A program made the translations under genes and the position numbers. The notes under the pieces are model-generated. The model was given only the letters and a program-made list of their open reading frames with translations, was not told the origin of the DNA and ran no database searches. This document shows, piece after piece, positions 1 to 14,844 of a stretch of 32,694 bases of DNA (the first letter of the stretch is position 1; every line of letters starts with the position of its first letter). The DNA is from an uncultured Thermoplasmatales archaeon (GTDB lineage: Archaea; Thermoplasmatota; E2; UBA202; JdFR-43): positions 1 through 32,694 of the forward strand of contig CAZDCH010000003.1 of assembly GCA_964503915.1 (NCBI GenBank), written 5' to 3'.

Positions 1-2
1 TG

Positions 3-1598
3 ATGAAAATGATAAAAAAGAGATTTTTAGGAAAAGGGAAAATAGTACCAATTCTGATTGCATTTGTAATAATAACTGCGTTTGGAGCATTAATGTCAAT
101 TGAAAGAGCAGAAGCCACATGGAACAACCCAAATGATTATCAATATCATTACAAGATCATTATTTCAAATTCTAATTCCTCTACGCTCACAAATTTCCAG
201 TTGAAAATAATTCTTAATTCATCAGTTATAGACTATTCTCATTGGCTCAGCAATGGATATGATACTCTTTTCACCGATGCAACAAACACAACAATATACA
301 ATCATTACATGGAAGTATGGAATACAAGCGGAGATAGTATATTTTGGGTAAATGTTACCAACATACCTCCTGGAACATCTATAATGTATATGCACTGTGG
401 ACAGGCAGGAATTACAAGTGATCCTTCAGATTTTGATAATACATTTACAAAAAGTTATGCAGGAGATACTGCTTTAGATGTGGAATGGCTTTTAGATGAA
501 GGAACAGGAACAATAGCGGCAGACACATCAGGAAATAATATAAATGGAACTATAGTTGGTAATGCTACATGGGTTGGCTCAGAAGGGGGGCAATGGGACG
601 GATATACTGTAACATTTTCAACTGGTGATAGTATTCAGCTAGATGAAGGAGGAGATGCAGTAGAAGACAATGGACAGCTATCACATCCAACATCAGGCAC
701 ATGGGAAGTATGGTATAAGCATTTGGGAACTCCTTCATCAGATACAGCATATGTTGTATATTGTGATGCAGCTGAGACAAATGATGGAGATGCAGGCATA
801 TTAGTTTTAAATAATGATACAGTTAAGGCAAAAATAACAGATTCAACTCAGAGTTATGGCTTATACGGGGGAAATGTAGAAGTAGGAAAATGGTATCATC
901 TTGTACTTACACTAGATAATGGTATAGCAAAATTTTATGTGAATGGCGAATTAAAAGCATCTGCAACAACAAATGCATCATCTCTTGGAAATAATTTAAG
1001 AAATGTTTCATTAAGTAATTACTACAATCCATCTTACATACTAAACGGTATAGTGGATTCTTTCAGACAATATCACAGAGTCTTATCAGAAGAAGAAGTA
1101 GAAAGGCATTATTATAGAGCAAAATATGCAAATCCATTACCATCATATACAATTTCAGGAGGAGCAGTTGATATAACTCTTTCTGGTTATGATACCAACA
1201 AAGTGATATGGCTTCCAACTGCAACAATAACAGATACTACTGGCGATACAGTATGGAGCAACGAAACAAGCTATGGAATTTTAATATGTGAAAATACTGG
1301 AACATTAACAATAAATAATATGTCAATGTATATCACTGGTCCAACTGATTTTTCAGGAGAAATAATGTATGTGTATACAAACAAAAGTGGATCATGGCAG
1401 CTTTTGGGATCAGGAACTGATTCTGCTACAATAACTGTTATATCTTCAGGATCTCCATGGAGTCTTGTTCCAGGAGATAAAATATACTTTATTTTCAAGG
1501 TAATTTACCCAGCAGCTATAACAACAACAGACGGAACATATTATAGTGGAGGAACGCCACCGCCACAACTTGAATGCTATATCACAGCAGACATATGA
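3..1598 (+). CDS. Secreted DUF2341-like plus LamG/concanavalin-A-like lectin domain protein (531 aa)
   Basis: Long ORF with an N-terminal signal-peptide-like segment (KKRFLGKGKIVPILIAFVIITAFGALMSIERAEA). YHYKIIISNS..FWVNVTNIPPGTSIMYMHCG resembles DUF2341. GTWEVWYKH..WYHLVLTLDNGIAKFYVNGE..FRQYHRVLSEEEVERHY fits the LamG_3 pattern. I count 13 N-X-S/T sequons. Confidence 0.8.
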   Translation: MKMIKKRFLGKGKIVPILIAFVIITAFGALMSIERAEATWNNPNDYQYHYKIIISNSNSSTLTNFQLKIILNSSVIDYSHWLSNGYDTLFTDATNTTIYNHYMEVWNTSGDSIFWVNVTNIPPGTSIMYMHCGQAGITSDPSDFDNTFTKSYAGDTALDVEWLLDEGTGTIAADTSGNNINGTIVGNATWVGSEGGQWDGYTVTFSTGDSIQLDEGGDAVEDNGQLSHPTSGTWEVWYKHLGTPSSDTAYVVYCDAAETNDGDAGILVLNNDTVKAKITDSTQSYGLYGGNVEVGKWYHLVLTLDNGIAKFYVNGELKASATTNASSLGNNLRNVSLSNYYNPSYILNGIVDSFRQYHRVLSEEEVERHYYRAKYANPLPSYTISGGAVDITLSGYDTNKVIWLPTATITDTTGDTVWSNETSYGILICENTGTLTINNMSMYITGPTDFSGEIMYVYTNKSGSWQLLGSGTDSATITVISSGSPWSLVPGDKIYFIFKVIYPAAITTTDGTYYSGGTPPPQLECYITADI

Positions 1599-2899
1599 TA
1601 AGGAAAATCTTCCCCCTTCTTGTTATTCTATCTGCCATCTGTATTCATATATCTATAACAAGATCAGAATCTGATGCAACAACAAATAATAAATTTGTTG
1701 TATGGCTTGTAACTGATACTCACATTGGATCTACATCATATGGATATACCGATAAATATGTATTTCAGGATGCCATTCAAGATAGTGAAAATGATTGGAA
1801 TTTTGATTGGGATATAGCATTTGTTCTTGGTGATCTTACAGATAATGGATATGAAACAGAATATCAGAATTTTTCAGATGCATTTAGTGTGCTAACAATG
1901 CATAATCGTAGCGACTTTTATTGTATGTCAGGAAATCATGATGCTAAAAATGACGATGGCTCTCTTTTCAGAAAATATGTAGATCCAACAGGTGAAAATA
2001 CAGAATATAGTGGAGTTAACAATTCACAGAGAAAATTTAGTATAGAAAATGTAAGTGCAACAAAAGATTCATATACAGTAACAGTAGGAAATATACTTTT
2101 TATAGTAATGTCCCCAAATTGGAATAATAATGATTATTACAACTTTTCGTGGTGGTATAACATAGTTGAGAATGCTCCAGCCGATCTCAACATAATATGC
2201 TTATCTCACCATTGGGTAGAGGGTTGCGGAATTGGCGGTGGTCCAGTAAGTGGTATGGAAAACTCTGCTCAATTTGCTTCATGGATGGAAAATAATTCAG
2301 GAAGAATTTCAGCATGGTTAAATGGACATGAGCATTGGGATTACGATGCTGGAGAAACTTACATCTCAACAGCATGGGGAACAACATTTATTGATGCTTG
2401 TTCAATGGATGATGGTGGAACAGCTCAGACAGCATCAAAAAGTATAGTTCTCATATTTGAGGAAGGAAATACAACAGTAAAAGTTGGAGATTATTATCAC
2501 GGATTATCAACATTCAATTATTTAGATGGCGTTGAGCAATGGGATACAACAGATCCATGTAGAGGAAACACAACATTTGAATTATTATTTCCTTTCTATT
2601 TAGATCCTCCTCAGCCACGATTGCTCTTTTGTGAAAACTTCCCATGGAATGCTAGCAACATAACAATTAATACAACTAATCCAACATTTTGCTGGGACTG
2701 GAGCATTATTTCAAATCCCCTCTCGTATATACTCTTAGTTTATTCAACTGATGGAATGTTCAATTATACTGTAAATATTTCTCATTCAGAATTTCTTGTG
2801 GGAGATCATATAGAATATACATGGGGAACAAAAGGTGAACCTCCTCTGCCTAGGGGCAAAGAATATAAATGGAGGGTAAAATGTATCTACGCATTATAA
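1595..2899 (+). CDS. Secreted calcineurin-like metallophosphoesterase with C-terminal Fn3-like domain
   Basis: The ATG at 1595 forms an ATGA overlap with the upstream stop. Signal peptide MIRKIFPLLVILSAICIHISITRS. Metallophosphatase motifs appear in order: VTDTHIG, GDLTDNG, GNHD, SHHW, GHEHW. The C-terminus ends in a KEYKWRVK Fn3-like signature that is shared with the next genes. Confidence 0.8.
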   Translation: MIRKIFPLLVILSAICIHISITRSESDATTNNKFVVWLVTDTHIGSTSYGYTDKYVFQDAIQDSENDWNFDWDIAFVLGDLTDNGYETEYQNFSDAFSVLTMHNRSDFYCMSGNHDAKNDDGSLFRKYVDPTGENTEYSGVNNSQRKFSIENVSATKDSYTVTVGNILFIVMSPNWNNNDYYNFSWWYNIVENAPADLNIICLSHHWVEGCGIGGGPVSGMENSAQFASWMENNSGRISAWLNGHEHWDYDAGETYISTAWGTTFIDACSMDDGGTAQTASKSIVLIFEEGNTTVKVGDYYHGLSTFNYLDGVEQWDTTDPCRGNTTFELLFPFYLDPPQPRLLFCENFPWNASNITINTTNPTFCWDWSIISNPLSYILLVYSTDGMFNYTVNISHSEFLVGDHIEYTWGTKGEPPLPRGKEYKWRVKCIYAL

Positions 2900-3225
2900 T
2901 AATTGCCATTTTGATTGCAATCATTCCTATAAGTTATGCAACAGATACAGAACATTTCGATATAGCATTTCCCATAGATTATCAAATAATTAAGGAAAGT
3001 GATTGGAGTGATACAGGAAACTTTACTGTTTTAGAAGATAATGGAACTCCGCCTCCCCAAGGAGCAGATACAGAATATTTCGATATTGCCTTCACTACCG
3101 ATTATGTAAGTGGAAATGGAGGATTAATAGATAATGAAACAAATACAGATTATCTGTTTGGAATTATTGTTAGTATTATTCTTCTCAATTTCTTAATTGT
3201 TATAATAGGGGGGTTGAGAAAATGA
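2881..3225 (+). CDS. Small type-I membrane protein with an N-terminal DTEHFDIAFPIDYQ motif (2 copies)
   Basis: GGAGGG sits 5 nt upstream of the ATG at 2881. Signal peptide MYLRIIIIAILIAIIPISYA is followed at once by TDTEHFDIAFPIDYQ. A second, degenerate copy is DTEYFDIAFTTDYV. There is a C-terminal TM helix (LFGIIVSIILLNFLIVIIGG). Confidence 0.6.
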   Translation: MYLRIIIIAILIAIIPISYATDTEHFDIAFPIDYQIIKESDWSDTGNFTVLEDNGTPPPQGADTEYFDIAFTTDYVSGNGGLIDNETNTDYLFGIIVSIILLNFLIVIIGGLRK

Positions 3226-3395
3226 AAGAAATGAAAAATAAAATATTGGTTACAATTGTATTAATTTTATCCATATTTGTTAATGCAATGGCAACAGATA
3301 CAGAACATTTCGATATAGCATTTCCTATAGATTATCAGGCCACACCGCAGGAAGATACAGAACATTTCGATATAGCATTTCCTATAGATTATCAG
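2944..3395 (+). repeat. Four copies of a 42-nt coding repeat (gatacagaacatttcgatatagcatttcc[ct]atagattatca[ag]) spread over two adjacent genes
   Basis: Copies lie at 2944-2985, 3067-3108 (diverged), 3297-3338 and 3354-3395. The last two are identical over 42 nt and 57 nt apart. Copy 1 differs from them at 2 synonymous positions. Confidence 0.9.
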
Positions 3396-4148
3396 GCAGG
3401 AGATCCTCCAAACATAACAATAAATTCTCCTCCTACCCCTGCCAACAACTCAATTGATGTTGATATAAATGTAACATTCTCATTTGATGTAGATGATCCA
3501 AATGGAGATTTGCTTACAGTTACTTTATGGAAATATGAATCAGATGGAACATGGACCACATGGAATGAAACAACTGTTACTCCACCAGCAACAGTTACTT
3601 TCCAACGCAGCTTAGCATACAATACAACATACAAATGGAGAGCGAGTGTTCAAGATGAAACAAATTTAGTATATGCGAACTTCTATGGATGGACATTTAC
3701 AACCATTGAGGAAGGAGAAACACCAAATCATCCACCAGTTATATCTGATCCTTCGCCAGCAGATGGCGCCACCGGAGTATCATATCCATCTGTAATTTTA
3801 TGGGTAAACGTAACTGATCTAGATAATGATAGCATACAAGTTACATTTTACAATGCCAGCGATGGTAGCATAATACATCAAACAGAGTGGATACAGAGTA
3901 GTGATGGAAAATTTAGAGTAGGAGCAAATTATACAAATCTAGCTCCTGCCACCACCTATTATTGGTATGTAACAGCAAATGATGGAAAAACAATTACAAC
4001 TTCTCCAACATGGAGCTTCACCACCATGGAAAAAACAACAGGAAATGGAGATATAATAATAGAAATATCAAATGAATGGATATGGATTGCAATAATTCTA
4101 GTTGTAATTGTTGTTATGATGGCTTTCTTAATTATGGTCAGGTGGTAA
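3222..4148 (+). CDS. Secreted protein with two Fn3/Ig-like domains and a C-terminal TM anchor; N-terminal DTEHFDIAFPIDYQ x2
   Basis: ATGA overlap with the upstream stop. Signal peptide ..LILSIFVNAMA is followed by the TDTEHF.. motif twice. Two beta-rich modules end in TTYKWRASVQDETN and TTYYWYVTANDG..WSFTT. C-terminal helix WIWIAIILVVIVVMMAFLIMV. Confidence 0.75.
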   Translation: MKEMKNKILVTIVLILSIFVNAMATDTEHFDIAFPIDYQATPQEDTEHFDIAFPIDYQAGDPPNITINSPPTPANNSIDVDINVTFSFDVDDPNGDLLTVTLWKYESDGTWTTWNETTVTPPATVTFQRSLAYNTTYKWRASVQDETNLVYANFYGWTFTTIEEGETPNHPPVISDPSPADGATGVSYPSVILWVNVTDLDNDSIQVTFYNASDGSIIHQTEWIQSSDGKFRVGANYTNLAPATTYYWYVTANDGKTITTSPTWSFTTMEKTTGNGDIIIEISNEWIWIAIILVVIVVMMAFLIMVRW

Positions 4149-4149
4149 A

Positions 4150-4650
4150 ATGAAAAAGATAAAGGAGATATTGGGAAAAGTTGGGCCTATAGCAATACCA
4201 ATGCTAATGATGATGATACCAAACGCAGCAGCAACAAATCAAACTGGGATTAGTCAAGAAGAAGGAACAATCATAGCAGCTGCAGTATTTTTCTACTTGC
4301 TGGGAGCTGCAATAATATTTCTCGGGTTGCCACAACGGAAAGAAAAGAAAATTGCAGGATATATCACAGCAATAGGTATTGCATTGGCAATTATGGCAAT
4401 AATATTCTATTTTATTGAATTTGCTACTGGTTGGAACATTACATTCTGGACAAAATGGATAGATTATGCTGGACATAAAACAGCTGTATTGACAGCAGCT
4501 GCAGGAGCATTCTTAATTATGCTAGCAACTGCATATCTGGCATATCAAGAGAAAAATCAAAGGAGGGAGAGAGACATAGTAATACTTGGAATAATTGCGA
4601 TGCTGGTATATTCAATAATAATTCTATTCCCTGCTCTAACCTTTATCTAA
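4150..4650 (+). CDS. Polytopic membrane protein (about 4-5 TM)
   Basis: The ORF starts 1 nt after the upstream stop and has several long hydrophobic segments. I recognise no family. Confidence 0.65.
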   Translation: MKKIKEILGKVGPIAIPMLMMMIPNAAATNQTGISQEEGTIIAAAVFFYLLGAAIIFLGLPQRKEKKIAGYITAIGIALAIMAIIFYFIEFATGWNITFWTKWIDYAGHKTAVLTAAAGAFLIMLATAYLAYQEKNQRRERDIVILGIIAMLVYSIIILFPALTFI

Positions 4651-4689
4651 AGGCCCAATAAAAAGGAAGGAAGGAATTTTGGAGGTAAG

Positions 4690-6075
4690 ATGAAAAGGAA
4701 AAAGATGAAAATAATAAAATGGAAAGTGTTGCTCATACTTGCAGTTATTATTCATTTATCCTATTTGATTTCAGCAGAATGTATAGATGAATCTCAAACT
4801 AATATTGATATTGCATATGGAATCATGCCAACAGATGCAAGAGCTCAAAGTTTCAAAATAGATGATGGAGAGTGGATTTACAGAATAGATTTTTATTATG
4901 AGCCAGGAGATCTAGGCTATTTAATCTGCTGTTTAGATGATGATTTAAATCCAAAAAATGGAAATCTAACAGAACATATATTTGATGTTTCTTCATGGAC
5001 AGCTGGATGGCATACATGGAATATTAGAAACATATCTGGAGATGTTGAAGTTTCTGCAGGAACAACTTATTATTTGATCCTAACACCACTTGGGTTGGGA
5101 ACATCTGGAGGAAGTTGGTATGGCGCTGATTCCGATCCAGATCAATATCCAAATGGAGAAGCATATCTTTATCATGATGATACATGGAGTTCATTAGGTT
5201 ATGGAAAGGATTATGCTTTCATTGTTTATACTGATGTAAATCCTGTAGCATCATTTACATATTACACAGATTTACTGACAATATATACTAATGCCTCCAG
5301 TTCATATACTCCAGATGGGGATCCTATCACAAGCTATCAATGGGATTGGAATGGAGATGGAATATGGGATGATACAGGAATTACAGCAAATCATACATAT
5401 TCGCTTCCAGGAACTTATACGGTCCAGCTGAAAGTAACAGATGAAGACGGTCATATAGATATACAAAGTAAGCAAATAACAGTTTCATCAAATCAACCAC
5501 CGATTGCAAATTTCACATATTCTCCAGAAAACATAACAATCAATGAAACTGTTCACTTTACAGATCTATCATATGATCCTGATGGAAGCATAATAAACTG
5601 GACATGGAATTTTGGAGATGGAAATTATAGCTATGAGCAAAATCCCAGTCATGTATATGAAAATGCTGGCCATTATGATGTTACTCTAACAGTTACTGAC
5701 AACAGCGGAGGCACAAATTCAACAACAAAAACGATAACAGTTAGTGAAAAAAATGAAAATGGCTCTTCATGGTTTACTTGGAAACTGCCTTTCTCATGGT
5801 TTGCAATTTTTCTAACAGCGTTCACAGGCATATGCGGGTTCAGTTTATCAGCATTTTTTTTGAAACCCGAGTCTATAAAAGCATTAGGATATGCTCCAGC
5901 TGCCGGCAGCATTCTTACAACAATTCTTCTTATTGCAGTCATATTAATGTATCATGCGGGTGTTGCATGGTATTACATTGCATTAATCATTCTACTCATC
6001 ATTTTCATCCTTTACATTACTATAAAAGTAGTTATTAGCAAAAAAGGAAGAAAATTCTTAAGGAAGGTGCTATAA
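4690..6075 (+). CDS. Surface protein: N-terminal beta-sandwich domain, two PKD domains, C-terminal TM segments
   Basis: GGAGGT lies just upstream of the ATG, and there is a signal peptide. Two PKD-type repeats are present (ASFTYYT..WDWNGDG..HTYSLPGTYTVQLKVTDEDG and ANFTYSP..WNFGDGN..HVYENAGHYDVTLTVTDNSGG), followed by 3 hydrophobic helices. Confidence 0.8.
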   Translation: MKRKKMKIIKWKVLLILAVIIHLSYLISAECIDESQTNIDIAYGIMPTDARAQSFKIDDGEWIYRIDFYYEPGDLGYLICCLDDDLNPKNGNLTEHIFDVSSWTAGWHTWNIRNISGDVEVSAGTTYYLILTPLGLGTSGGSWYGADSDPDQYPNGEAYLYHDDTWSSLGYGKDYAFIVYTDVNPVASFTYYTDLLTIYTNASSSYTPDGDPITSYQWDWNGDGIWDDTGITANHTYSLPGTYTVQLKVTDEDGHIDIQSKQITVSSNQPPIANFTYSPENITINETVHFTDLSYDPDGSIINWTWNFGDGNYSYEQNPSHVYENAGHYDVTLTVTDNSGGTNSTTKTITVSEKNENGSSWFTWKLPFSWFAIFLTAFTGICGFSLSAFFLKPESIKALGYAPAAGSILTTILLIAVILMYHAGVAWYYIALIILLIIFILYITIKVVISKKGRKFLRKVL

Positions 6076-6782
6076 TGGGATGGACAGATGATATAGATAC
6101 AGAGGGATTAGTGGAAGAAAATCCATTCGTTTTCATCATAATTGGAATAATAGGAGCAATAGCTGTTACAATCTTACATTTTGTCGGCATAGATTATCAG
6201 CCGGGATGGTTCCAAGGACAAAATTTGTTATCTACCATTGGCTTAATCTTCCTAATTGTTTTCATTCCAGCAATAGCTTTATCAACATTAACTGGAAGAA
6301 GTGATTTAGTAAAATGGGAGGCAATTTTTTTACTAATTTCTGTTGCATTAATATTTATAGGTAATAACTTTGATTTTGATAAGTTTCTCGAAGCAATAAG
6401 AGAAGCAAAAATATTCAATACAAGTTGGGATACTTCAGATGTGATCACTGCAATTTTAATCGCTACAATAGGCATTTCTATCATTGCAACAGCATTTACA
6501 GGAAAAGGATTTAGCATAGGAACTGCATTAATTGTCCTAATTTGCTTTATAGGTTTAGGAATTATCAATTTTCCAGAGAAACTAGGAGGAGGAACTCATC
6601 AATTTATATCAAATCTAATTGGCGGAGATTTCGGAAAAGCAGTAGGAATAGGAGGATTGGCTACAGGGGGAGCATTAATAACATATGGAGCTATAGCAGG
6701 CTCGATGGGCCCAATAGGTATAGGAGCATTTGCAATAGGAGCTGGAATTTATTTGCTGGGGGCAAACATGGGATGGTGGTAA
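6075..6782 (+). CDS. Polytopic membrane protein with a glycine-zipper-rich C-terminus
   Basis: TAATG start/stop overlap. Multiple TM helices. The C-terminus reads GGDFGKAVGIGGLATGGALITYGAIAGSMGPIGIGAFAIGAGIYLLGA. Confidence 0.65.
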   Translation: MGWTDDIDTEGLVEENPFVFIIIGIIGAIAVTILHFVGIDYQPGWFQGQNLLSTIGLIFLIVFIPAIALSTLTGRSDLVKWEAIFLLISVALIFIGNNFDFDKFLEAIREAKIFNTSWDTSDVITAILIATIGISIIATAFTGKGFSIGTALIVLICFIGLGIINFPEKLGGGTHQFISNLIGGDFGKAVGIGGLATGGALITYGAIAGSMGPIGIGAFAIGAGIYLLGANMGWW

Positions 6783-6787
6783 TTAAA

Positions 6788-7114
6788 ATGAAAAGGGGAA
6801 AAACAATCCTTGGAATAACTGCAATTGCAGTTGCACTAGCTTCAATTATTCCAGTCATAGCCCATATTATCTTTTCCGCCTTAGGTTATATCTTTACAAT
6901 GATAGGAGCAGGCTTTTCATTGCTTGCAGCATGGTTTGCAAAAGCTTCTGATGAACCTCATGAAAAAGCAATTTGGGGAGGAATATTGCTTGCTCTAATA
7001 ATGGCAATGATCTATTACTTAGGATTACCTCTGCTAAAATACTGGTGGCTAATCATCCTTGCAATTATCATCTTTCTCATAGCAGTTTTCAATGCATGGA
7101 TAAGAAAAAAATGA
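6788..7114 (+). CDS. Small hydrophobic protein (108 aa, about 3-4 TM)
   Basis: I use the internal ATG at 6788 (MKRGKTILGITAIAVALASI..). The upstream part of track ORF 6542-7114 is R/N/S-rich and overlaps the previous gene in another frame. Confidence 0.6.
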   Translation: MKRGKTILGITAIAVALASIIPVIAHIIFSALGYIFTMIGAGFSLLAAWFAKASDEPHEKAIWGGILLALIMAMIYYLGLPLLKYWWLIILAIIIFLIAVFNAWIRKK

Positions 7115-7215
7115 AGCTAAAAATAGAAAGTTATAGGGATTTCCTCAAATTCTATTGGATAGTTGTAATTATATTTGTAAGTGTAACATTGTTTCTAACA
7201 TGGTGGTTGGGATGA
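7111..7215 (+). CDS. Tiny single-pass membrane protein (34 aa)
   Basis: ATGA overlap with the upstream stop. MKLKIESYRDFLKFYWIVVIIFVSVTLFLTWWLG has one TM helix. The ORF is very short, so confidence is low. Confidence 0.35.
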   Translation: MKLKIESYRDFLKFYWIVVIIFVSVTLFLTWWLG

Positions 7216-7445
7216 ACAAAGAGAAAAAAATGATACAAAGGGAAAAAATAATAGAATTATTCAAAAAAGGAAAAACAATAGAAGAAATTGGTAAAGAATT
7301 AGGGATGAATCTACAAAAAATTAGCAATATTTTGAAAAATCATAGAATAAAAGTCCATAGTGGTTCTTTTCCAAAGTATCTTAAAAATTTCAGAAACAGA
7401 ATCATAGAAATTAGTCTGGATAGAAAAAAGGAGGTGAAAATATAA
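7212..7445 (+). CDS. Small helix-turn-helix protein (77 aa)
   Basis: ATGA overlap with the upstream stop. IIELFKKGKTIEEIGKELGMNLQKISNILKNH is a typical HTH pattern. Confidence 0.55.
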   Translation: MNKEKKMIQREKIIELFKKGKTIEEIGKELGMNLQKISNILKNHRIKVHSGSFPKYLKNFRNRIIEISLDRKKEVKI

Positions 7446-7525
7446 ATACAATAATAAAATTTGCATCAGCTCCCGCAACATGGGCGATATACTTCATAGG
7501 GATAATTTTATTCATATTTCTCAGC

Positions 7526-7861
7526 ATGAAGTTTAATTATAGCAGGGAAACATGGAAGGATTTCTTCCGCATTTACTTTGGCATAGGAGCATTTTTATTT
7601 GGACTAGCAGCAGGCTTCCAGGGAATAGCTGAGGCAATAGGCGCACAAATTCATTTAGATTATTCAATTAAAAGCATTATAACACTCATTTTCATGCTAC
7701 TCTATATCTTTTTGTTATATAAGACTTCAAAGAGTTTGTTTGAGAAAAGGGGATATGAATGGATGGGGGCAATATTTGCATTATTTTTCATAGGCTGCAT
7801 AATAAATGCTATTTTAACAGGAGGAAAATATCTTCCTTTTGTGGGGTGGTTGCTTGGCTAG
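7526..7861 (+). CDS. Small membrane protein (111 aa from the ATG; possibly N-terminally longer, from a near-cognate ATA at 7442)
   Basis: Hydrophobic ORF. The in-frame upstream stretch 7442-7525 is open and encodes a TM-like helix (ATWAIYFIGIILFIFLS). It is preceded by GGAGGTGA (7430-7437). Confidence 0.6.
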   Translation: MKFNYSRETWKDFFRIYFGIGAFLFGLAAGFQGIAEAIGAQIHLDYSIKSIITLIFMLLYIFLLYKTSKSLFEKRGYEWMGAIFALFFIGCIINAILTGGKYLPFVGWLLG

Positions 7862-7868
7862 GAGAGGA

Positions 7869-8021
7869 ATGGGGACAAAAATACTGATTGCAATATTGGC
7901 ATTAGTTGGCTTAACAGTCTTAATAGATAAAGTTGCAAATACACAAATTTTCGATACATTGTATAATAAATTTATAGAATTTGTTCAATGGTTAGCTAAT
8001 TTAATAGGAGGGAAAGCATGA
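7869..8021 (+). CDS. Small hydrophobic protein (50 aa)
   Basis: Internal ATG of track ORF 7839-8021. MGTKILIAILALVGLTVLIDKV.. has one TM helix plus an amphipathic helix. Its stop overlaps the next start (ATGA). Confidence 0.4.
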   Translation: MGTKILIAILALVGLTVLIDKVANTQIFDTLYNKFIEFVQWLANLIGGKA

Positions 8022-8317
8022 CAAATTTACAAATAGCATTGATCTTGCTCGGAATATCGATCTTCCTTATTATTTCATCATATAAAATTTCAAGGATCAA
8101 AACAAAAAGAATGAGAAAGCACGTTATGACAGCAATAGGAATATTTCTCATGGCATTTGGAATATACGAACTCCCTTGGGGAGTTATGGAAGTATATAAA
8201 ATTACAGAGGACATATTCAACTTCAATTTAATTGAAAACTATACTTTCTGGACGATCATCTGCATTATCTGCATCATAGTTGGCTACATTCTTTATAGAG
8301 GAGGAAGGAAAAAATGA
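8018..8317 (+). CDS. Small membrane protein (99 aa, about 3 TM)
   Basis: ATGA overlap and hydrophobic helices. Confidence 0.6.
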   Translation: MTNLQIALILLGISIFLIISSYKISRIKTKRMRKHVMTAIGIFLMAFGIYELPWGVMEVYKITEDIFNFNLIENYTFWTIICIICIIVGYILYRGGRKK

Positions 8318-8589
8318 GTAAAAGGAAAAAAATTGCGATAATAGGAATCGTTGCCACCTTAGCTACCTTAATCGGAGGAATAGCAAACATTTATCACTGG
8401 TGGGAAATAGATTGGAATGCAATTTCCTATCATCCAGCCGTTCCATTTCTGGGGTTGATGAGCTGGATCGGAATTGCTGCAATTTACAAATTGAGAAAAA
8501 TAAGGAATATAGCCTTGTGGTTGATTGCTACTTTCTGGCTCTTTTACAATATCCTTCTCCTGTTGATGATTTATGGGTGGTTGAAATGA
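8314..8589 (+). CDS. Small membrane protein (91 aa, about 3 TM)
   Basis: ATGA overlap and hydrophobic helices. Confidence 0.6.
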   Translation: MSKRKKIAIIGIVATLATLIGGIANIYHWWEIDWNAISYHPAVPFLGLMSWIGIAAIYKLRKIRNIALWLIATFWLFYNILLLLMIYGWLK

Positions 8590-8885
8590 AAAGAAGTATA
8601 TTTAGAAGAAAGAAAAAAGGAAGGAAGGAAAAAAGGAGATGGATCCAATCTGCAATAAAAAAACCAGGCGCGTTGAGTCGCCAGCTAGGTATTCCAGAGG
8701 AAGAAGATATCCCAATTAGATTACTCCAAAAAATTAAGAATACAGAAATTGGAACTACTATAAAAAATCCAACAAAAAAGGGAAAGAGAAGAATAAAAGT
8801 AACTAGGCTATTAAAAAGAAGAGCTGTTTTAGCATTAACATTGAAGAAATTAAGAAGAAGGAAAAAGAAAAAAAGAAGGAGGTGA
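8586..8885 (+). CDS. Highly basic small protein with a poly-K/R tail (99 aa)
   Basis: Internal ATG at 8586 with an ATGA overlap. MKRSIFRRKKKGRKEKRR..KKPGALSRQLGIPEEEDIP..KRRAVLALTLKKLRRRKKKKRRR. The upstream part of track ORF 8400-8885 overlaps the previous gene. Confidence 0.55.
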   Translation: MKRSIFRRKKKGRKEKRRWIQSAIKKPGALSRQLGIPEEEDIPIRLLQKIKNTEIGTTIKNPTKKGKRRIKVTRLLKRRAVLALTLKKLRRRKKKKRRR

Positions 8886-8890
8886 TAAAA

Positions 8891-9202
8891 GTGCCGGCAA
8901 AAATAATAAGGAGAAAGATCGGAGGAAAATATTATTACTTCTACAAACGAAAAGGAGGAGCTTGGAAAAAAATAAAAGGAAGATTTAAAAAAGTAGGGAC
9001 GGGAAAAGGAGATTATAGCAGGAGAAACATTGTTGTGGATTTGCATAAAAAACCCCATGATAGGAAATACATTGATTCTGAAATGGCAAAAAAATACCCC
9101 CAAGCATACGATCATCCAGCTGAGCTAATAGAATACTATAGATGGAAGAGAAAGCAGAAGAAAAAGAAGAAGAAAAAATCTAGAAAAAGGAAGAAGAGAT
9201 AG
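8891..9202 (+). CDS. Highly basic small protein with a poly-K tail (103 aa)
   Basis: GGAGGTGA (8878-8885), then 5 nt, then GTG at 8891. The track start at 8882 lies inside the SD. The C-terminus is KRKQKKKKKKKSRKRKKR. Confidence 0.55.
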   Translation: MPAKIIRRKIGGKYYYFYKRKGGAWKKIKGRFKKVGTGKGDYSRRNIVVDLHKKPHDRKYIDSEMAKKYPQAYDHPAELIEYYRWKRKQKKKKKKKSRKRKKR

Positions 9203-9224
9203 CTCTTCCTCCTCTTATTTATTT

Positions 9225-9494
9225 ATGAAAATGAAGGAAAGAAGAAAGGAAGAAGAAAATACGGGAATAAGAGCATGCTTCGCTATTGTTGGATGGATCA
9301 GAGGAGATGGAATAAGTAGCATAGATAAGATATTAAAAGAAATAAATCAAAGAATTTTTTCAATACAGGGAGTAGAGAGTAAAGTATATTTAAAAACAGA
9401 TATAGCAAAATTATTTGTTATTAGTGAAAGAGAAATTTCAAAAGGAGAAGCAACTCTTCCTGGAATGAAAATAAAAATTAAGAAAATAAAATGA
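9225..9494 (+). CDS. Hypothetical protein (89 aa)
   Basis: ORF in the operon context. Its stop overlaps the next start. No recognisable motif. Confidence 0.5.
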   Translation: MKMKERRKEEENTGIRACFAIVGWIRGDGISSIDKILKEINQRIFSIQGVESKVYLKTDIAKLFVISEREISKGEATLPGMKIKIKKIK

Positions 9495-9706
9495 AGAATA
9501 AAAAGCCTTTTCTAAAAAGTTTAATTTATCAAGATACAGAAAAACAGCATATAGCAGTAGCTATAATAAAAATAGACAACATAGAAATAAAAATGGATTT
9601 TTTGGAAAATGATGAAATTATGGATGCCTTTAATGATTTCGCCCAGGAAATTCTGCAATATGTAGCAAGGAGGTGGAAACATAAAGAGAAAAAGAAGAAG
9701 GATTGA
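9491..9706 (+). CDS. Hypothetical acidic/basic small protein (71 aa)
   Basis: ATGA overlap. No recognisable motif. Confidence 0.5.
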   Translation: MKNKKPFLKSLIYQDTEKQHIAVAIIKIDNIEIKMDFLENDEIMDAFNDFAQEILQYVARRWKHKEKKKKD

Positions 9707-9746
9707 ACTGGAAGAAGACTATTACGAAGAGAAAAAAGAGGGACTG

Positions 9747-10343
9747 ATGCAAAATTTCAAGAGATTCGTATCATATCATCCGAGATTATCGCTCATAATT
9801 ATATTTTTGATCATAATATTCGCTTTTAATATTGCATTATTCCTTCCATTAAATTTCTCCTCCATACTATACAATCTTGAAATTACAATTTTACAAGCAT
9901 TGCGTATTCCTATCCCAACATGGATCGTCTTAATAATAATGATAATAACATTGTTCCACGGAATATATTTCATTCCACGATTGGAAATACCATCAACTGA
10001 AGAAAAATTCATATATACTTCCACCTGGACAGATGGGAAGCTCAGATATTTCAAAGTTTTCGGCATAAACAAACCTATTGCAGTAGATGAAGAATGGATA
10101 AAAAGAATAGGCTGGAAAAGATACATTCTCGTTGGAAATATAAGAGTAATAACAGAAACAGATGATGCAATAATATACGAGAGTGAGGAACTAGAAGTTA
10201 GCCAGTCTATCGAATTGCAGCATGAGCTTGATCTCTACAAGAGAAAAGTTGCTCAGCTTGAAGAGGATCGCAAAGCCGACAAAATCATCATGACTAAAAA
10301 GGAACTTCTTGAATTTTTAAAAACATTGAAGGTAGGAAAATGA
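9747..10343 (+). CDS. Membrane protein with two N-terminal TM helices and a C-terminal coiled-coil-like region (198 aa)
   Basis: Hydrophobic N-terminus. The C-terminus SQSIELQHELDLYKRKVAQLEEDRKADK looks like a heptad pattern. Confidence 0.6.
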   Translation: MQNFKRFVSYHPRLSLIIIFLIIIFAFNIALFLPLNFSSILYNLEITILQALRIPIPTWIVLIIMIITLFHGIYFIPRLEIPSTEEKFIYTSTWTDGKLRYFKVFGINKPIAVDEEWIKRIGWKRYILVGNIRVITETDDAIIYESEELEVSQSIELQHELDLYKRKVAQLEEDRKADKIIMTKKELLEFLKTLKVGK

Positions 10344-11158
10344 AATGCAAAATTGCAATAATCATTATAACACTTTGTTTCTTTTCCTTTCATGCATCAG
10401 CATCAAACTATATCATTATAAGAACAAATGTAAATCCAATGTATATAGAAGGAGATCCGATCAGGATCCAAGTATTTATTCTTGTTTTTAGAAATAATAA
10501 GCCGACCGATGAAACTGCAGAAATCATCATAAAAATTTCAGGAATTGGCATAAATTATAGCTATGAGGAACATGTAACAATAAGAGGAGGGCGCCGATAT
10601 ACAATTTCCTTACCTTCTTTAAAAGAAGGACATTATTATATCTCGATTCAAGCCATTAAAGGAAATATGAAAAGCCAAAAAATTAAGGTTGAATTCGGAG
10701 TTACTAAAGCTCCTATTCCCTATTCAATACATTTCTCCCCAGATGGTTCAAAATTATACTTCACAAGCTTAAAATTAAATCAAACAGGTGTTCCAGATCC
10801 AGATTACCCTTTTACATTATATATCTATGCCTCTTCTCATGGAACTGGAGAGGTATTGATTAGAACAATCAAGAATGTTACAAAGCTGACTTTATCAATT
10901 CCTTCTTCATGGAGATCTGGAACTTTAATTGTTGATGTTGTAGATATATATGGATGGAGAAATTCTGCAACTATGGATTTATCAACATTTTCCTTTGAGG
11001 GAATTCCAGCAATGTATGATTATGAATATATGCTAAAAGAACCTTTCAAAAGTAGAACATTGCAAAGAGCAGCAACAGCATTCATTATATTAATTATTTT
11101 AATCATTTTGTTTATTATATTTGCAGGTGCTTACAATGTCAGAAGGAGGAGTTTATAA
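10340..11158 (+). CDS. Secreted beta-rich (Ig-like) protein with a C-terminal TM anchor (272 aa)
   Basis: ATGA overlap. Signal peptide MKCKIAIIIITLCFFSFHASA. Beta-strand-rich body. C-terminal helix AFIILIILIILFIIFAGAY followed by NVRRR. Confidence 0.7.
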   Translation: MKCKIAIIIITLCFFSFHASASNYIIIRTNVNPMYIEGDPIRIQVFILVFRNNKPTDETAEIIIKISGIGINYSYEEHVTIRGGRRYTISLPSLKEGHYYISIQAIKGNMKSQKIKVEFGVTKAPIPYSIHFSPDGSKLYFTSLKLNQTGVPDPDYPFTLYIYASSHGTGEVLIRTIKNVTKLTLSIPSSWRSGTLIVDVVDIYGWRNSATMDLSTFSFEGIPAMYDYEYMLKEPFKSRTLQRAATAFIILIILIILFIIFAGAYNVRRRSL

Positions 11159-11513
11159 GGAATGGCACGAAACTATAATGCAATTATACAAAGCTCCAGT
11201 CCAGCAGCTCATAGATAAATTTGCAAATGAAGAAATACCACGCTACAAGGGAAGCAGAATTATTCTTGATGATGAAGCAGATTTGTTAAAAGCAGCCTGT
11301 GAGGCAGTCCAAATTGAAGTAAATGGAAATCTAAGAGAATACAAAACTTTCATGATATATTTGATTAAATTTATCATATTCCTATGGAACAAAATGGAAA
11401 AAGAGTTAAAGCCAGAAGATCCCTATATTCGATTATTGGATAAATTAAATGAAGGCGATTTAAGAAACATATTAAAAGAAGTAAAAGAAGATGAAGTACA
11501 GAAGCAGGGCTAA
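11136..11513 (+). CDS. Hypothetical soluble protein (125 aa)
   Basis: I prefer the ATG at 11136 over the TTG at 11121. No recognisable motif. It overlaps the next gene by 23 nt. Confidence 0.5.
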   Translation: MSEGGVYKEWHETIMQLYKAPVQQLIDKFANEEIPRYKGSRIILDDEADLLKAACEAVQIEVNGNLREYKTFMIYLIKFIIFLWNKMEKELKPEDPYIRLLDKLNEGDLRNILKEVKEDEVQKQG

Positions 11514-12567
11514 AATAGAAACAGATTTCTGGCTTCATGAAGTTAGATTTATTCCTTATTTTGTTCCAGAGAAATTAAAAAAATTGTTGATCATATTTGA
11601 ACATTTTTACAGAATAGGAAAAATAAACAAGCAAAGGATAACGATCATTGCTACTTATTTAAAACAAAAGTTTGGTATAGATTACCGTATAATAGATGAA
11701 AATCAAATCGTTTTCCTCCCTCGCTCTTCCGATGCATTAGTAAAATATTTTGCAAAATATCCAAATTTAATGAGCATTATAGGGGATAGACATTCTGGCA
11801 AAACAATAACAGCCTGGAAAATTGCCCTGGATATACTTAACAGAAAAAAGGCGGCGAGATTATACGTATATGGAGATGTAGATGCTCTGGGTTATGCATT
11901 GATAAATGAAAATTTGATAGATCAAAAAAGAATCGTGGTCAAAGAAGATTACACACTTCCTCCACTTGATGGAAAGCCAAAAATCATTCTCTATAATGAG
12001 CTTTCTGAAGCCTTAATGGGAAAAAGAGCACTTTCCATAGAAAATATAGAGTTAAACCTCCAGGCTCTTAGAAGTCGCCATTTAAATGCTTGGATAATTT
12101 ATAATGTGGTCCGCCATGGCAGCCTGGAGAGTGTGCTGAGAGAAACAACAAATATATTTCTTTTCAAATGGATGAGCGGAACTATACTCAAAAATGCAAT
12201 GAATATCGTACCATTAGGGTGGAAGGAGCTTTTGAAAATCACCATGCATTTTAACCAAAATGAAGCGCTTGCCATTGTTCCAGTAGTAGGCAAAGGAACC
12301 ACATTTTTTATTCATGAAACAAACCCACCGCCATGGCTTTTGCATGCTCATTCCGTTGCAAAGAAGAATCAAAGGCTGCTAATGGTAAAAAGTGAGCAGG
12401 AGAGAAGAATCATGAAGAGAATAGCAGAATTAAAAATGGATCAGGAAAGACAGTGGACTAACGAAGAAATAAGGCTCATTTTAAAGAAAGAATTTGGCGT
12501 AGATTATTCAGTTAGGACCATACAAAACAAATGGAGGAAATACAGGAAAATAATGGAGATAGAATGA
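11491..12567 (+). CDS. P-loop NTPase (358 aa) with a C-terminal HTH-like tail
   Basis: Walker A GDRHSGKT at aa 98-105 (nt 11782-11805). Candidate Walker B PKIILYNELSE. The C-terminus WTNEEIRLILKKEFGVDYSVRTIQNKWRKYRK is Myb/HTH-like. Confidence 0.7.
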   Translation: MKYRSRAKIETDFWLHEVRFIPYFVPEKLKKLLIIFEHFYRIGKINKQRITIIATYLKQKFGIDYRIIDENQIVFLPRSSDALVKYFAKYPNLMSIIGDRHSGKTITAWKIALDILNRKKAARLYVYGDVDALGYALINENLIDQKRIVVKEDYTLPPLDGKPKIILYNELSEALMGKRALSIENIELNLQALRSRHLNAWIIYNVVRHGSLESVLRETTNIFLFKWMSGTILKNAMNIVPLGWKELLKITMHFNQNEALAIVPVVGKGTTFFIHETNPPPWLLHAHSVAKKNQRLLMVKSEQERRIMKRIAELKMDQERQWTNEEIRLILKKEFGVDYSVRTIQNKWRKYRKIMEIE

Positions 12568-13187
12568 AGGCAGTAATTTATGCCAGGGTATCAACTGAAG
12601 AACAGAAAAAAGGATATAGTATAGAAGCACAAATTGAGGAATGTAAAAAATATTGTGAATTAAAAGGATGGGAAGTTGTAAAAGTGTATAAAGAAGTAAA
12701 ATCAGCTGCTAATATAAAAAGAGATGAGTTGAGTAAGGCAATAGAAATGGTAAAGTTGGGAGTTGCAGACATATTAGTTGCATGGAAAATAGATAGAATA
12801 ACAAGGAGCATCAAAGATTTCATTTTTTTAACAGAGGAATTAATGAAAGAAAAAGATGGAGAAAATTATATTGCTTTCACAAGCTTGATGGAAAATTTGG
12901 ATCTAACAACAGCAGTTGGAAGGGCATTCGCAAGCATTGTTACTGTATTTGCTCAGTTGGAAAGAGAAATGATTTCAGAAAGAACAAAAATGGGTATTAA
13001 AAAAGCAAAGGAGGCTGGAAAGCAGATTGGCTATCCAAAAGGTCGGGATCGAATCCCGGCATGGAAAAAAGAAAAGATCATCGAGTTGCACAAGCAGGGT
13101 AAAACATATAAGGAAATTCAAATGCAGCTAAAAGTTGGAGCTGGCACAATAACAAGCACACTCCGCAAGGCGGGCTTAATAGAATAG
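12564..13187 (+). CDS. Small serine recombinase (resolvase/invertase type; N-terminal catalytic domain, C-terminal HTH)
   Basis: ATGA overlap. MKAVIYARVSTEEQ carries the catalytic Ser motif. Also present: WKIDRITRS, LEREMISERTKMGIKKAKEAGKQIGYPKG, and the C-terminal HTH GKTYKEIQMQLKVGAGTITSTLRKAG. Confidence 0.9.
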   Translation: MKAVIYARVSTEEQKKGYSIEAQIEECKKYCELKGWEVVKVYKEVKSAANIKRDELSKAIEMVKLGVADILVAWKIDRITRSIKDFIFLTEELMKEKDGENYIAFTSLMENLDLTTAVGRAFASIVTVFAQLEREMISERTKMGIKKAKEAGKQIGYPKGRDRIPAWKKEKIIELHKQGKTYKEIQMQLKVGAGTITSTLRKAGLIE

Positions 13188-13569
13188 CAAATTTGCAATG
13201 AAACCCCCTTAGTTTTTGTGAAAATTAAGGATTTCGTGAAATGTAAAAAATCATACAAATTTACATACAAAAACAGTAGTTCCGAATCTAAAAATTTGCC
13301 AAAGAAAGTAAGATTTACAGATTCTACAAGAAATGGCAGACTTGCCAAAATTAGTAAAGTCATTTCTTGATAGAGGGAAATCTATTAAAATGTGTCGCAG
13401 AGAAGCTTGGTATAGATATTAGCCTATGACATTAATCCAAAATGTGTAGAGAAGCGTGTCCTTTTTTTATTTAAATTTTACTCCACCCGGTGGAGTTCAA
13501 AAAATGGATGTTTTGAGTTTCGGAACATAAGAGATGAATAAAAAAAATTTTCACCCCCCTTTCGCACCT

Positions 13570-13771
13570 TTGCTCAGCAAAACGAACGTTTTGCTGAGTG
13601 CATCCTGGCTATATCTTAAAAATTTGCTGAATTGCTGCCTGACAGGCAGCAAGGCATGAAACATTTTTCATTGTCTATTATATATATCTATATATATTAC
13701 GATGTAGGTGCATATAATTTTATAAATTACTCCTCTCCCCCTCTAAGATTTTGAAATATTCTCTCCCCCTC
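13570..13771. promoter_or_regulatory. Candidate cis-acting region (origin-like): two GC-rich hairpins, clustered TTGCTG/CAGCAA hexamers, alternating AT tract, 11-bp direct repeat
   Basis: Hairpin 13573-13598 has 12-bp arms (ctcagcaaaacg / cgttttgctgag). Hairpin 13632-13652 has 9-bp arms (ttgctgcct / aggcagcaa). Hexamers lie at 13575, 13591, 13624, 13632 and 13647. The (TA)n-like tract is at 13676-13699. ctctccccctc occurs at 13733-13743 and 13761-13771. Confidence 0.4.
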
Positions 13772-13821
13772 CAACTTTTTTACATTGCCAATTAATTAAT
13801 AAAATTACAGGAGGTGATAAC

Positions 13822-14022
13822 ATTAAAAGAAAGATCATAATTGAAAAGAATGTATTTGTTCGTCCTGTTGATGTAGCAAAGTTCATTTATAAAAAAGCTA
13901 AAAAATGCCAAGAAGAAGGAAAAGGAATAAATGAATTATTAGATGATCTAGCAAAAATTATCATTGATATGGAAGAAGAAAAATTCCAGGAGCTGGCGGA
14001 AAAATGGGGCGTGGATCCTTAA
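13822..14022 (+). CDS. Possible small ORF (66 aa) lacking a canonical start; ATT 4 nt after GGAGGTGA
   Basis: The frame is open from about 13746 to the TAA at 14020-14022. GGAGGTGA (13810-13817), then taac, then ATT at 13822. The product is IKRKIIIEKNVFVRPVDVAKFIYKKAKKCQEEGKGINELLDDLAKIIIDMEEEKFQELAEKWGVDP. The only in-frame ATG/GTG/TTG is the ATG near the C-terminus (IIIDMEEE). Confidence 0.25.
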   Translation: MKRKIIIEKNVFVRPVDVAKFIYKKAKKCQEEGKGINELLDDLAKIIIDMEEEKFQELAEKWGVDP

Positions 14023-14031
14023 CTTCTTTCC

Positions 14032-14630: not shown

Positions 14631-14680
14631 TTATTATCAGTTTGATAACGTTAAATTATTTTTAAAGTGATTATATGTTA

Positions 14681-14826: not shown

Positions 14827-14844
14827 CCTTGAGGAGGTATGGAG

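Follow-up and report, generated by a model that had tools for sequence, protein, structure and literature searches.

A tRNA-integrating mobile element of Thermoplasmatota archaea, probably a provirus of a new capsid-less family

The window analysed here is a stretch of 32,694 nucleotides from an uncultured Thermoplasmatales archaeon (GenBank assembly GCA_964503915.1, contig CAZDCH010000003.1, forward strand). Positions 1-18076 of the window are most of one integrated copy of an element that is certainly a tRNA-integrating mobile element, and that probably represents a new family of temperate, capsid-less, non-icosahedral, membrane-containing archaeal viruses. The gene block at 3-12567 is most likely the particle-forming (envelope and packaging) module of the element, and the particle would be spindle-shaped or pleomorphic. 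The provirus reading is based on a homologue of the fusellovirus protein VP2 together with its gene position, a motor of the FtsK/HerA type, a conserved hairpin membrane protein, and putatively glycosylated, fast-evolving lectin and immunoglobulin (Ig)-like proteins. It is further based on the size class of the element and on the parallel of its gene content with His1 and with the spindle-shaped viruses of vent Thermococcales (PMC12934983). Integrated non-icosahedral proviruses and plasmids are already known from archaea as a kind; the lineage, the core gene set and the combination of VP2 with an FtsK/HerA motor were not found described and would be new.

Extent, relatives and core genes of the element

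The block 3-12567 is part of a larger element, which runs from left of window position 1 to the tRNA-Lys gene at 18002-18076. The genes to the right of this tRNA gene are all housekeeping ones (L10e, tRNA-Phe, CDP-alcohol phosphatidyltransferase, isoleucyl-tRNA synthetase, an IF-2B-like protein, Trm5 and a diphthine-synthase-type methylase). Identical DNA (100%) was present in four samples, in their ENA, Logan and JGI assemblies. The identical contig of another assembly (L003) reaches 1122 nt further to the left of window position 1, with a PAPS reductase gene and a small gene that is ribbon-helix-helix-like by eye; since the element genes continue there, the left end of the element lies outside the window. 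A left attachment site was absent from L003, and direct repeats were absent from a 436-kb DHVE2 contig with a related element (L012). The G+C content of the window is about 33%, and that of positions 1-18000 (0.31-0.41) is higher than that of the host genes at 19000-26000 (0.25-0.33).

Relatives were searched for with the nucleoside triphosphatase (NTPase) encoded at 11491-12567. Homologues numbered 45 in 5.8 billion protein clusters, and an exhaustive profile search yielded 35 representatives among 1.84 billion proteins, in which all members carrying names were Thermoplasmatota. A scan of 185,579 species genomes gave 11 loci, 10 of which were labelled as Thermoplasmata, Thermoplasmatales, Aciduliprofundum or DHVE2 and one of which was binned as Micrarchaeota; the latter (L015, CAZVAJ010000023.1) is a short contig of 3.7 kb that either was mis-binned or hints at a broader range of hosts. 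The scan of JGI metagenomes gave 26 loci. A serine recombinase gene was located 3' of the NTPase gene wherever the downstream sequence was long enough (20 loci). The locus is thus sporadic and recombinase-linked, as in a mobile element, and is not a conserved chromosomal surface locus occurring in many genomes without a link to integrases, the case that an earlier note on this DNA had set against its own proposal of a virion-like module. The proposal of that note that the lineage is undescribed is also supported, as nothing matching was found in GenBank phages, IMG/VR and PLSDB, as far as the searches reach, and no description of an Aciduliprofundum element was found in the literature.

The three chromosomal contexts each show a tyrosine integrase gene directly beside a tRNA gene, namely tRNA-Lys in the window, tRNA-Pro in L012 and tRNA-Ile in the cultured Aciduliprofundum sp. 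MAR08-339. The complete genome of the last (CP003168, L007) holds two tandem copies of a 17.5-kb element, which are 99.98% identical over 16.16 kb and are recent tandem insertions. The right copy ends with the integrase gene followed by an intron-containing tRNA-Ile(GAT) gene (L007 16149-16267), and the junction between the copies retains the 3' end of the tRNA; this tRNA gene was found by ARAGORN with the intron option only and was missed by the default run. In the window the integrase gene overlaps the tRNA-Lys gene by its last ~60 nt only, and a frameshift of 1 nt within a run of As (17395-17411) divides it in two. Addition of one A gives an open reading frame (ORF) of 329 aa, the homology to intact relatives runs on over both frames, and an independent assembly has the same sequence. 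Contigs with related elements cluster at 21-26 kb, compared with the ~17.5 kb of the MAR08-339 element. Several contigs of 22-25.6 kb carry element-type genes only (toxin-antitoxin genes, a pair of TcmP and radical-SAM genes, ORFans), and the parts read showed neither a tyrosine integrase nor a tRNA gene nor any recognisable housekeeping gene; they are compatible with episomes.

The core of both main clades was defined with tblastn, phmmer and hhalign and consists of the hairpin protein 8018, the proteins 9747, 10340 and 11136 (named here and below by gene start), the NTPase and the serine recombinase. The most distant loci keep 10340 and the NTPase at 25-35% identity. Relatives differ by exchange of the large signal-peptide proteins, those with LamG and PKD domains among them, and such a stable core with fast-changing surface proteins is as expected for a particle with receptor-binding proteins. 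All genes of the train are intact, and they are collinear with those of relatives that share 50-83% protein identity. Past the resolvase, the closest relative (L022, 17337-19234) has a spore-photoproduct-lyase-like radical-SAM protein beside a three-Cys-motif partner protein (TcmP), and no tyrosine integrase was seen in it within 10 kb. Defence-type genes lie after the NTPase module in a distant relative from a Thermoplasmatota metagenome-assembled genome (L050/L051, 11669-21341); they encode AIPR, a D12 methyltransferase, a PD-(D/E)XK protein and an MmeI-type enzyme.

The block 3-12567 contains 21 plus-strand genes with short or overlapping junctions, or 22 if the serine recombinase gene at 12531-13187 is included. 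Signal-like segments and transmembrane helices were assigned by hydropathy, and all 29 element proteins were scanned with Pfam and PHROGs, with matches at the domain level only. The same-strand train reported in the earlier note was recovered, and its count of 23 genes was not, the difference being due to small-ORF calls. Its six signal-peptide proteins (3, 1595, 2881, 3222, 4690 and 10340) all have N-terminal signal-like segments; the C-terminal anchors that it gave to four of them were found in 2881, 3222 and 10340, and 4690 ends in two to three transmembrane helices in place of a single anchor. The "about ten" small or polytopic hydrophobic proteins are of the kind described and were counted as eight (4150, 6075, 6773, 7526, 7869, 8018, 8314 and 9747), and the two polybasic proteins (8586-8885 and 8891-9202) and the one P-loop NTPase were as it had stated. 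Its description of the proteins as ORFans does not hold at the domain level for some of them (LamG/DUF2341, metallophosphoesterase, Big_5 and PKD).

In agreement with the earlier reading, no HK97 or jelly-roll capsid protein, portal, terminase or polymerase was recognised among the element proteins by the Pfam and PHROGs scans. VirB4 and VirD4 were likewise not found, so that the claimed absence of a conjugation ATPase holds for these two; it is not strictly shown, because the NTPase belongs by its modelled fold to the FtsK/HerA superfamily. In the region 7526-11513, Pfam gave one sub-threshold match and PHROGs one marginal match (the 8891-9202 protein). The NTPase excepted, the soluble proteins of the block (those with neither signal peptide nor transmembrane helix) are all of 125 aa or less, too small for a soluble capsid protein of the single or double jelly-roll type.

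The VP2-like protein, the NTPase and the other core proteins

The polybasic protein of 8586-8885 is assigned by profile comparison to the VP2 family of fuselloviruses. Its best PHROG was phrog_15706 (VP2) with E 0.011, and two relatives gave E 0.008 and 0.16, respectively, with end-to-end alignments. The profile of its family (6 members) was compared by hhalign with a VP2 profile of 7 members (SSV1, SSV6, SMF1, SSeV and the Thermus phages phiFa, Tsatsa and IN93), and the result was 94.0% with E 1.4e-7 over 65 columns. As a control, the same VP2 profile was compared with 43 other element families, other polybasic proteins included, and gave no more than 0.8%. When a VP2 hidden Markov model was run over 2595 ORFs of the related loci, three 8586 homologues took ranks 1-3. 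By reading, the protein and SSV1 VP2 have in common an N-terminal motif (K/R)W(V/I)Q.A(I/V)K(K/R)PG and a C-terminal motif R..LA..LKKL. What had been offered earlier as an analogy with the basic DNA-binding protein of SSV1 is therefore better described as homology. No match was obtained for 8586-8885 at the BLAST level (tblastn against GenBank phages). With SSV1 VP2 as the query 19 virus records matched, and SSV1 VP2 and the IN93 homologue gave zero matches to 72,556 plasmids. The second polybasic protein (8891-9202) is unrelated to VP2 (0.1%).

The genes 8018, 8314 and 8586 follow each other with stop/start overlaps, and in L021, L022 and L027 the hairpin gene is likewise followed by a VP2-like one. 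This order of hairpin or small hydrophobic protein and VP2-like protein recalls VP1-VP3-VP2 in SSV1 and VP1-VP2 in SMF1. Members of the VP2 family were also seen in the bacterial Thermus viruses phiFa, Tsatsa and IN93 (L066, L067 and L068), which are of two morphotypes; the family thus spans the divide between archaea and bacteria among viruses of thermophiles.

The NTPase has a Walker A motif GxxxxGKT that is invariant across 33 homologues, and its Walker B motif ends in NE, not DE. An AlphaFold2 (AF2) model from the 33 homologues had pLDDT 82 and pTM 0.74. In our own reading of the model, residues 1-90 fold into a bundle of helices plus a beta-hairpin and may be a winged helix; a RecA-like core comes next, and three helices make up the C-terminus. 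The C-terminal helices match Pfam HTH_33 at 321-347, the ATPase core is without a Pfam match, and no transmembrane anchor was found by hydropathy. Foldseek matches of the core comprised the FtsK motor (top, E 1e-5), the packaging ATPases B204 of STIV and STIV2, HerA and many A32-like ATPases. The B204 proteins were closest by target-normalised TM-score (0.54-0.63), and A32-like ATPases dominated the viral matches. The sequence identity to FtsK/HerA pumps is 12-16%. On the basis of the predicted fold, the NTPase is assigned to the FtsK/HerA superfamily and is a candidate for a genome-loading motor.

By sequence, the NTPase stands far from known proteins. Its tblastn search gave nothing against GenBank phages and, against the 72,556 plasmids of PLSDB, a sole match at E 0.6, which is not significant; its profile gave nothing below E 0.26 against PDB sequences. 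Compared with a 7-member profile of pleolipovirus VP8, the NTPase profile gave 81.6% with E 1.1e-5, in an alignment confined to the Walker A-Walker B stretch of 73 columns. The aligned stretch takes in GDxxSGKTxTxW and PK(I/V)..(N/D)E, and VP8 was not recovered by HMMER; the match is taken as a lead and not as family membership. Assignment to the family of PAV1 ORF375, His1 ORF16 or SSV1 B251 was rejected, hhalign giving 9-20%, 18% and 8%, respectively.

Among the other core proteins, 8018 matches the family of a 98-aa MAR08-339 protein (hhalign 99.3%, E 7.6e-21) and is the best candidate for a coat or internal membrane protein. Protein 9747 is present in 19 related loci and matches a 211-aa MAR08-339 protein at 100%, and 11136 is present in 25 loci and matches a 120-aa MAR08-339 protein at 100% (both hhalign). 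Homologues of 10340 occur in at least 30 loci, the most distant ones included. Its AF2 model had pLDDT 82, and from the modelled architecture the protein is a candidate spike. A fold search of BFVD with this model gave generic Ig/FN3-like matches to tail or envelope proteins only (TM-score ~0.3) and no capsid proteins. No match to 10340 was found by tblastn against GenBank phages, and its profile gave nothing below E 0.61 against PDB sequences.

Surface proteins, remaining genes and feature list

N-glycosylation sequons occur in the six signal-peptide proteins at 1.1-3.0 per 100 aa, and the cytoplasmic element proteins have almost none. In five of the six the density (2.4-3.0 per 100 aa) is 1.7-4.3 times the composition-based expectation; the sixth is 10340, with 1.1 per 100 aa (3 sequons versus 1.6 expected). 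The LamG protein of 3-1598 is a candidate receptor-binding protein. It has an 81% identical homologue in L022 and none in other clades. Its LamG domain was matched to PAV1 ORF678 (hhalign 71%), and tblastn against GenBank phages gave weak LamG-domain matches to three bacterial phage records only. The phosphoesterase gene adjoins the LamG gene also in L022/L060, and the pair was found only in the window element and L022 (81-83% identical). For the PKD protein 4690, full-length homologues are confined to related elements, and 968 proteins match it at E < 1e-40.

The surface set varies from element to element: L047 has a 1204-aa PKD protein and L048 a DUF2341 protein. The MAR08-339 element has three unrelated type-I proteins (624, 506 and 435 aa), a hairpin protein of its own (83 aa) and a 95-aa polybasic protein. 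Homologues of the 506-aa protein were seen in L042, L043 and L050 (the most distant) and not in the window clade, in which the PKD protein is in the equivalent position. Three DNA repeats of 45 nt, 97-100% identical, were observed at 2938-2984, 3291-3340 and 3353-3397, and they code for the peptide DTEHFDIAFPIDYQ. This peptide occurs twice in each of the adjacent proteins 2881 and 3222 and begins just past the signal peptide, the fourth copy being diverged (seen in translation). A role of this motif in processing, sorting or binding is conceivable.

The features of the element are listed in the table. In the gap of 13188-14031, a possible regulatory or origin region, an Rfam scan found nothing, and in the window as a whole it found two tRNAs only. 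The ParB-like protein is of 452 aa (Pfam ParB_N 2e-31, HTH_ParB 4e-17), and the CxxC motifs of the adjacent helix-turn-helix protein were seen in translation.

Table. Features of the integrated element, in window coordinates (TM, transmembrane helix; HTH, helix-turn-helix; wHTH, winged HTH)
Feature	Position	Strand	Properties
Secreted lectin-like protein	3..1598	+	signal peptide, DUF2341, LamG/ConA-like (Pfam Laminin_G_3 1e-19), 13 sequons
Secreted metallophosphoesterase	1595..2899	+	signal peptide, Pfam Metallophos 2.5e-10, 13 sequons
Small type-I membrane protein	2881..3225	+	signal peptide, C-terminal TM, peptide DTEHFDIAFPIDYQ twice
Type-I membrane protein with Ig-like domains	3222..4148	+	Pfam Big_5 1.6e-9; TM 287-305 of 308; DTEHFDIAFPIDYQ motif twice
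Four-TM membrane protein	4150..4650	+	hydropathy; homologues in L009, L011, L022, L027, L047
Membrane glycoprotein (putative)	4690..6075	+	signal peptide, specific N-terminal domain, two PKD (Pfam PKD_4 2e-35), C-terminal bundle of 2-3 TM
Polytopic membrane protein	6075..6782	+	6 TM
Polytopic membrane protein	6773..7114	+	3 TM
Small basic HTH protein	7212..7445	+	Pfam HTH_23, HTH_28, E ~1e-4, below cut-offs
Two small hydrophobic proteins	7526..8021 (starts 7526, 7869)	+	111 aa, 3 TM; 50 aa, 1 TM
Core small hydrophobic protein	8018..8317	+	conserved helical hairpin, basic C-terminus
Second small hydrophobic protein	8314..8589	+	91 aa, 2-3 TM; elsewhere in L047 only
Polybasic, putatively DNA-binding protein, VP2 homologue	8586..8885	+	41 K/R in 99 aa; PF25632, phrog_15706
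Second polybasic protein	8891..9202	+	40 K/R in 103 aa (39% K+R)
Two small soluble proteins	9225..9706	+	89 and 71 aa; no family match (Pfam/PHROGs)
Core protein	9747..10343	+	two N-terminal TM, then cytoplasmic domain
Core type-I membrane protein	10340..11158	+	signal peptide, two Ig-like beta-sandwich domains, linker, TM anchor
Core small acidic soluble protein	11136..11513	+	always just 5' of the NTPase gene
P-loop NTPase, predicted FtsK/HerA superfamily	11491..12567	+	358 aa; N-terminal helical/hairpin domain, C-terminal HTH
Serine recombinase, resolvase/invertase type	12531..13187	+	Pfam Resolvase 9e-38; C-terminal HTH; core gene, intact
Non-coding gap, ~840 nt	13188..14031	.	near-perfect hairpin 13618-13666; two CT-rich direct repeats 13733-13785
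Divergent pair: two-TM protein and MarR/TrmB-like wHTH regulator	14032..14630	-	Pfam
Maintenance genes: small ORF, HTH protein with CxxC motifs, ParB_N + HTH_ParB protein	14839..16909	+	
Tyrosine integrase, frameshifted	17076..18061	+	Pfam Phage_integrase 8e-33; 3' end overlaps tRNA-Lys
tRNA-Lys(CTT)	18002..18076	-	integration target, right end of element

Comparison with known viruses, rival explanations and significance

The window families were compared by hhalign with all PAV1 and HRPV-1 proteins (986 comparisons), with matches of LamG and wHTH domains only, and with the structural proteins of His1 and SSV1, among which VP2 was the only lead. Like the element, Fuselloviridae have a VP2 homologue 3' of small, very hydrophobic proteins, a tyrosine integrase acting at tRNA genes, large secreted or anchored proteins and a size of 15-25 kb. 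They differ in that the small transmembrane families of the element, of similar topology and gene position, gave no more than 1.7% with the SSV1 VP1/VP3 profile. Moreover, SSV1 B251 is a DnaA-like AAA+ protein, whereas the sole ATPase of the element is FtsK/HerA-like. The SSV-type integrase gene is split on integration, whereas that of the element is continuous but for the 1-nt frameshift, and the hosts are Sulfolobales in the one case and Thermoplasmatota in the other.

The spindle-shaped viruses of vent Thermococcales, the PAV1/TPV1-like members of which have been proposed as 'Osirisviridae' and 'Sethviridae', carry lectin proteins, an integral-membrane module, a P-loop ATPase, and an accessory PAPS reductase and XerC/D integrase (PMC12934983). 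With these PAV1/TPV1-like viruses the element shares the vent habitat, a ConA/LamG lectin, a run of membrane proteins, a PAPS reductase, an XerC/D-type integrase, a single P-loop ATPase encoded towards the module's end and the location of nearly all genes on one strand. PAV1 is unlike the element in its major capsid protein ORF121 (no more than 3.1%) and its ATPase ORF375. The PAV1/TPV1-like viruses also have two ConA lectins with C-terminal transmembrane bundles, whereas the element has one, without a bundle and outside the conserved core.

Pleolipoviridae such as HRPV-1 and His2 resemble the element in the logic of the block (membrane protein, type-I spike-like protein, small ORFs, NTPase); they differ in that HRPV-1 VP3, VP4, ORF6 and ORF7 gave no more than 2% by hhalign, the element is larger and its host is not haloarchaeal. 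In His1 (Halspiviridae), ORF20 (signal peptide and C-terminal anchor), ORF18, ORF17 (two transmembrane helices) and ORF16 (ATPase with C-terminal HTH) mirror 9747, 10340, 11136 and the NTPase, and His1 too has a run of small transmembrane proteins and two anchored signal-peptide proteins. Its ORF16 remains apart from the NTPase (the 18% given above), however, the small proteins gave no more than 5%, and His1 is linear with a protein-primed polymerase. The NTPase has its ATPase core fold in common with FtsK, STIV B204, the A32-like ATPases and Streptomyces TraB; the FtsK/HerA pumps have DE at Walker B, and the NTPase of the element is without a transmembrane anchor and without a jelly-roll capsid partner. 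A jelly-roll major capsid protein of icosahedral viruses of the Varidnaviria type (STIV, pTN3/TKV4-like, sphaerolipoviruses) was not found by Pfam or PHROGs, the ATPase fold being present. Neither were the HK97 capsid, portal and large terminase of Caudoviricetes (Pfam, PHROGs), nor, in the Pfam scans of the element proteins, conjugative ATPases (VirB4/TrbE- or VirD4/TraG-like) and a relaxase.

Several points weigh against the provirus reading. Particle formation is deduced from the genes, no particle having been seen. Homologues of known major capsid, coat and spike proteins were not found (no more than 8% with SSV1 VP1/VP3, His1 VP21, PAV1 ORF121 and HRPV-1 VP3/VP4), and membership in the Pleolipoviridae or in the spindle-virus families, to which the module had been likened, is not borne out. 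VP2 is an accessory DNA-binding protein found in SSV1 and some relatives and not a universal hallmark; the VP2 match involves short basic proteins, and the polybasic protein of clade B (95 aa in MAR08-339) did not match VP2. The FtsK/HerA superfamily comprises viral packaging pumps and conjugative double-stranded DNA pumps alike. The NTPase profile found zero relatives in IMG/VR, and a replication protein was not recognised among the element proteins. The integrase of the window copy is frameshifted, so that this copy may be inert or immobile. Finally, structures were predicted for two proteins (the NTPase and 10340), and the small proteins were compared by sequence profiles alone.

Some of these points suit an integrative plasmid without a true virion, which would spread in host vesicles as pR1SE does or by contact-dependent transfer of double-stranded DNA; in the transfer variant, the NTPase would be a pump like Streptomyces TraB, the polytopic proteins a pore and the lectin and PKD proteins adhesins. 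This explanation, the main rival, is unlikely but carries real weight, given that the NTPase has FtsK motor domains as its top matches in structure, that no capsid protein was identified in the element, that the ParB-like and resolvase genes are typical of plasmids and that no relatives of the NTPase were found in IMG/VR. The C-terminal HTH of the NTPase also fits, since the FtsK gamma domain and TraB carry one. Vesicles and nanotube-like structures have been reported in cultures of A. boonei (PMC10117752). Against a plasmid stand the NTPase without a transmembrane anchor, its single match at E 0.6 among 72,556 plasmids, and the VP2 family, which was found in virus records and in zero plasmid records among the collections searched. 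VirB4, VirD4 and a relaxase were not found by the Pfam and PHROGs scans, although a single TraB-like pump is still compatible with this. To our knowledge, the size of 17.5 kb (MAR08-339) and the single small ATPase are also unlike those of archaeal conjugative plasmids.

It is improbable that the element is a decaying or domesticated island that has become fixed and in which the genes of the secreted adhesins, lectin and phosphoesterase have been put to use at the host surface. The frameshifted integrase and the 100% identical sequence in four samples would agree with such an island, as would the LamG, PKD and Big domains, which are common in cellular surface proteins (968 proteins match the PKD protein, as given above). 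The other genes of the train, however, are intact and collinear with relatives at 50-83% identity, which points to purifying selection on the whole module; the family is sporadic and not vertically conserved, the tandem copies of MAR08-339 are recent and the serine recombinase is intact. A membrane-containing icosahedral virus (PRD1/STIV- or sphaerolipovirus-like), with a jelly-roll protein diverged beyond recognition and the NTPase as the packaging ATPase, is highly improbable. The fold of the NTPase, nearest to STIV and STIV2 B204 by target-normalised TM-score and with A32-like ATPases as the dominant viral matches, and the VP2-family protein of the Thermus icosahedral virus IN93 speak for it. 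The size limit of 125 aa on soluble proteins other than the NTPase in 3-12567 speaks against it, as does the two-domain beta protein 10340, which is membrane-anchored and was matched in BFVD to Ig/FN3-like tail or envelope proteins and not to capsids.

For a capsid-less temperate virus, the following course may be proposed. The tyrosine integrase would move a circular genome into and out of the 3' end of a tRNA gene; that it inserts there is evident from the chromosomal context, and the window copy may be stuck in place. The serine recombinase and the ParB-like protein would serve the resolution and partition of the episome, respectively. The VP2-like protein, and perhaps the second polybasic protein too, would coat or condense the DNA, and the NTPase, with its C-terminal HTH and N-terminal helical/hairpin domain, would recognise the genome and load it at the membrane. 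The coat or envelope would be built by 8018 (the hairpin protein) together with the remaining small hydrophobic proteins and with 9747 and 10340 as a core pair, and the putatively glycosylated type-I proteins (LamG, Big and PKD) would decorate the particle and bind glycans of the host surface.

DHVE2/Aciduliprofundum are widespread thermoacidophilic vent archaea, and we know of no isolated virus for the lineage. In the fullest form of the proposal, the elements would be the first recognised viruses of DHVE2/Aciduliprofundum and a new family, with a lipid-containing non-icosahedral particle and with a VP2-type protein together with an FtsK/HerA motor that has its own DNA-recognition domains; this fuller statement is tentative, and we lean slightly against its being correct in every part. 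Among the described archaeal virus families compared or read about, none was found to pair a VP2-type protein with an FtsK/HerA motor that has putative DNA-binding domains. According to reviews, the entry of the genome into the particles of spindle-shaped and pleomorphic (capsid-less) archaeal viruses is unresolved (PMC4124505). A conserved core of membrane proteins, an FtsK/HerA motor that would itself bind DNA and a VP2-type protein make up a testable model of active genome loading without a capsid shell. If the element were instead a plasmid moved by a single FtsK-like pump, it would represent a new route of DNA transfer in Euryarchaeota. With two near-identical copies in the cultured strain MAR08-339, the question is accessible to experiment, and, if the virus reading is true, this strain would be a tractable system for capsid-less genome loading.

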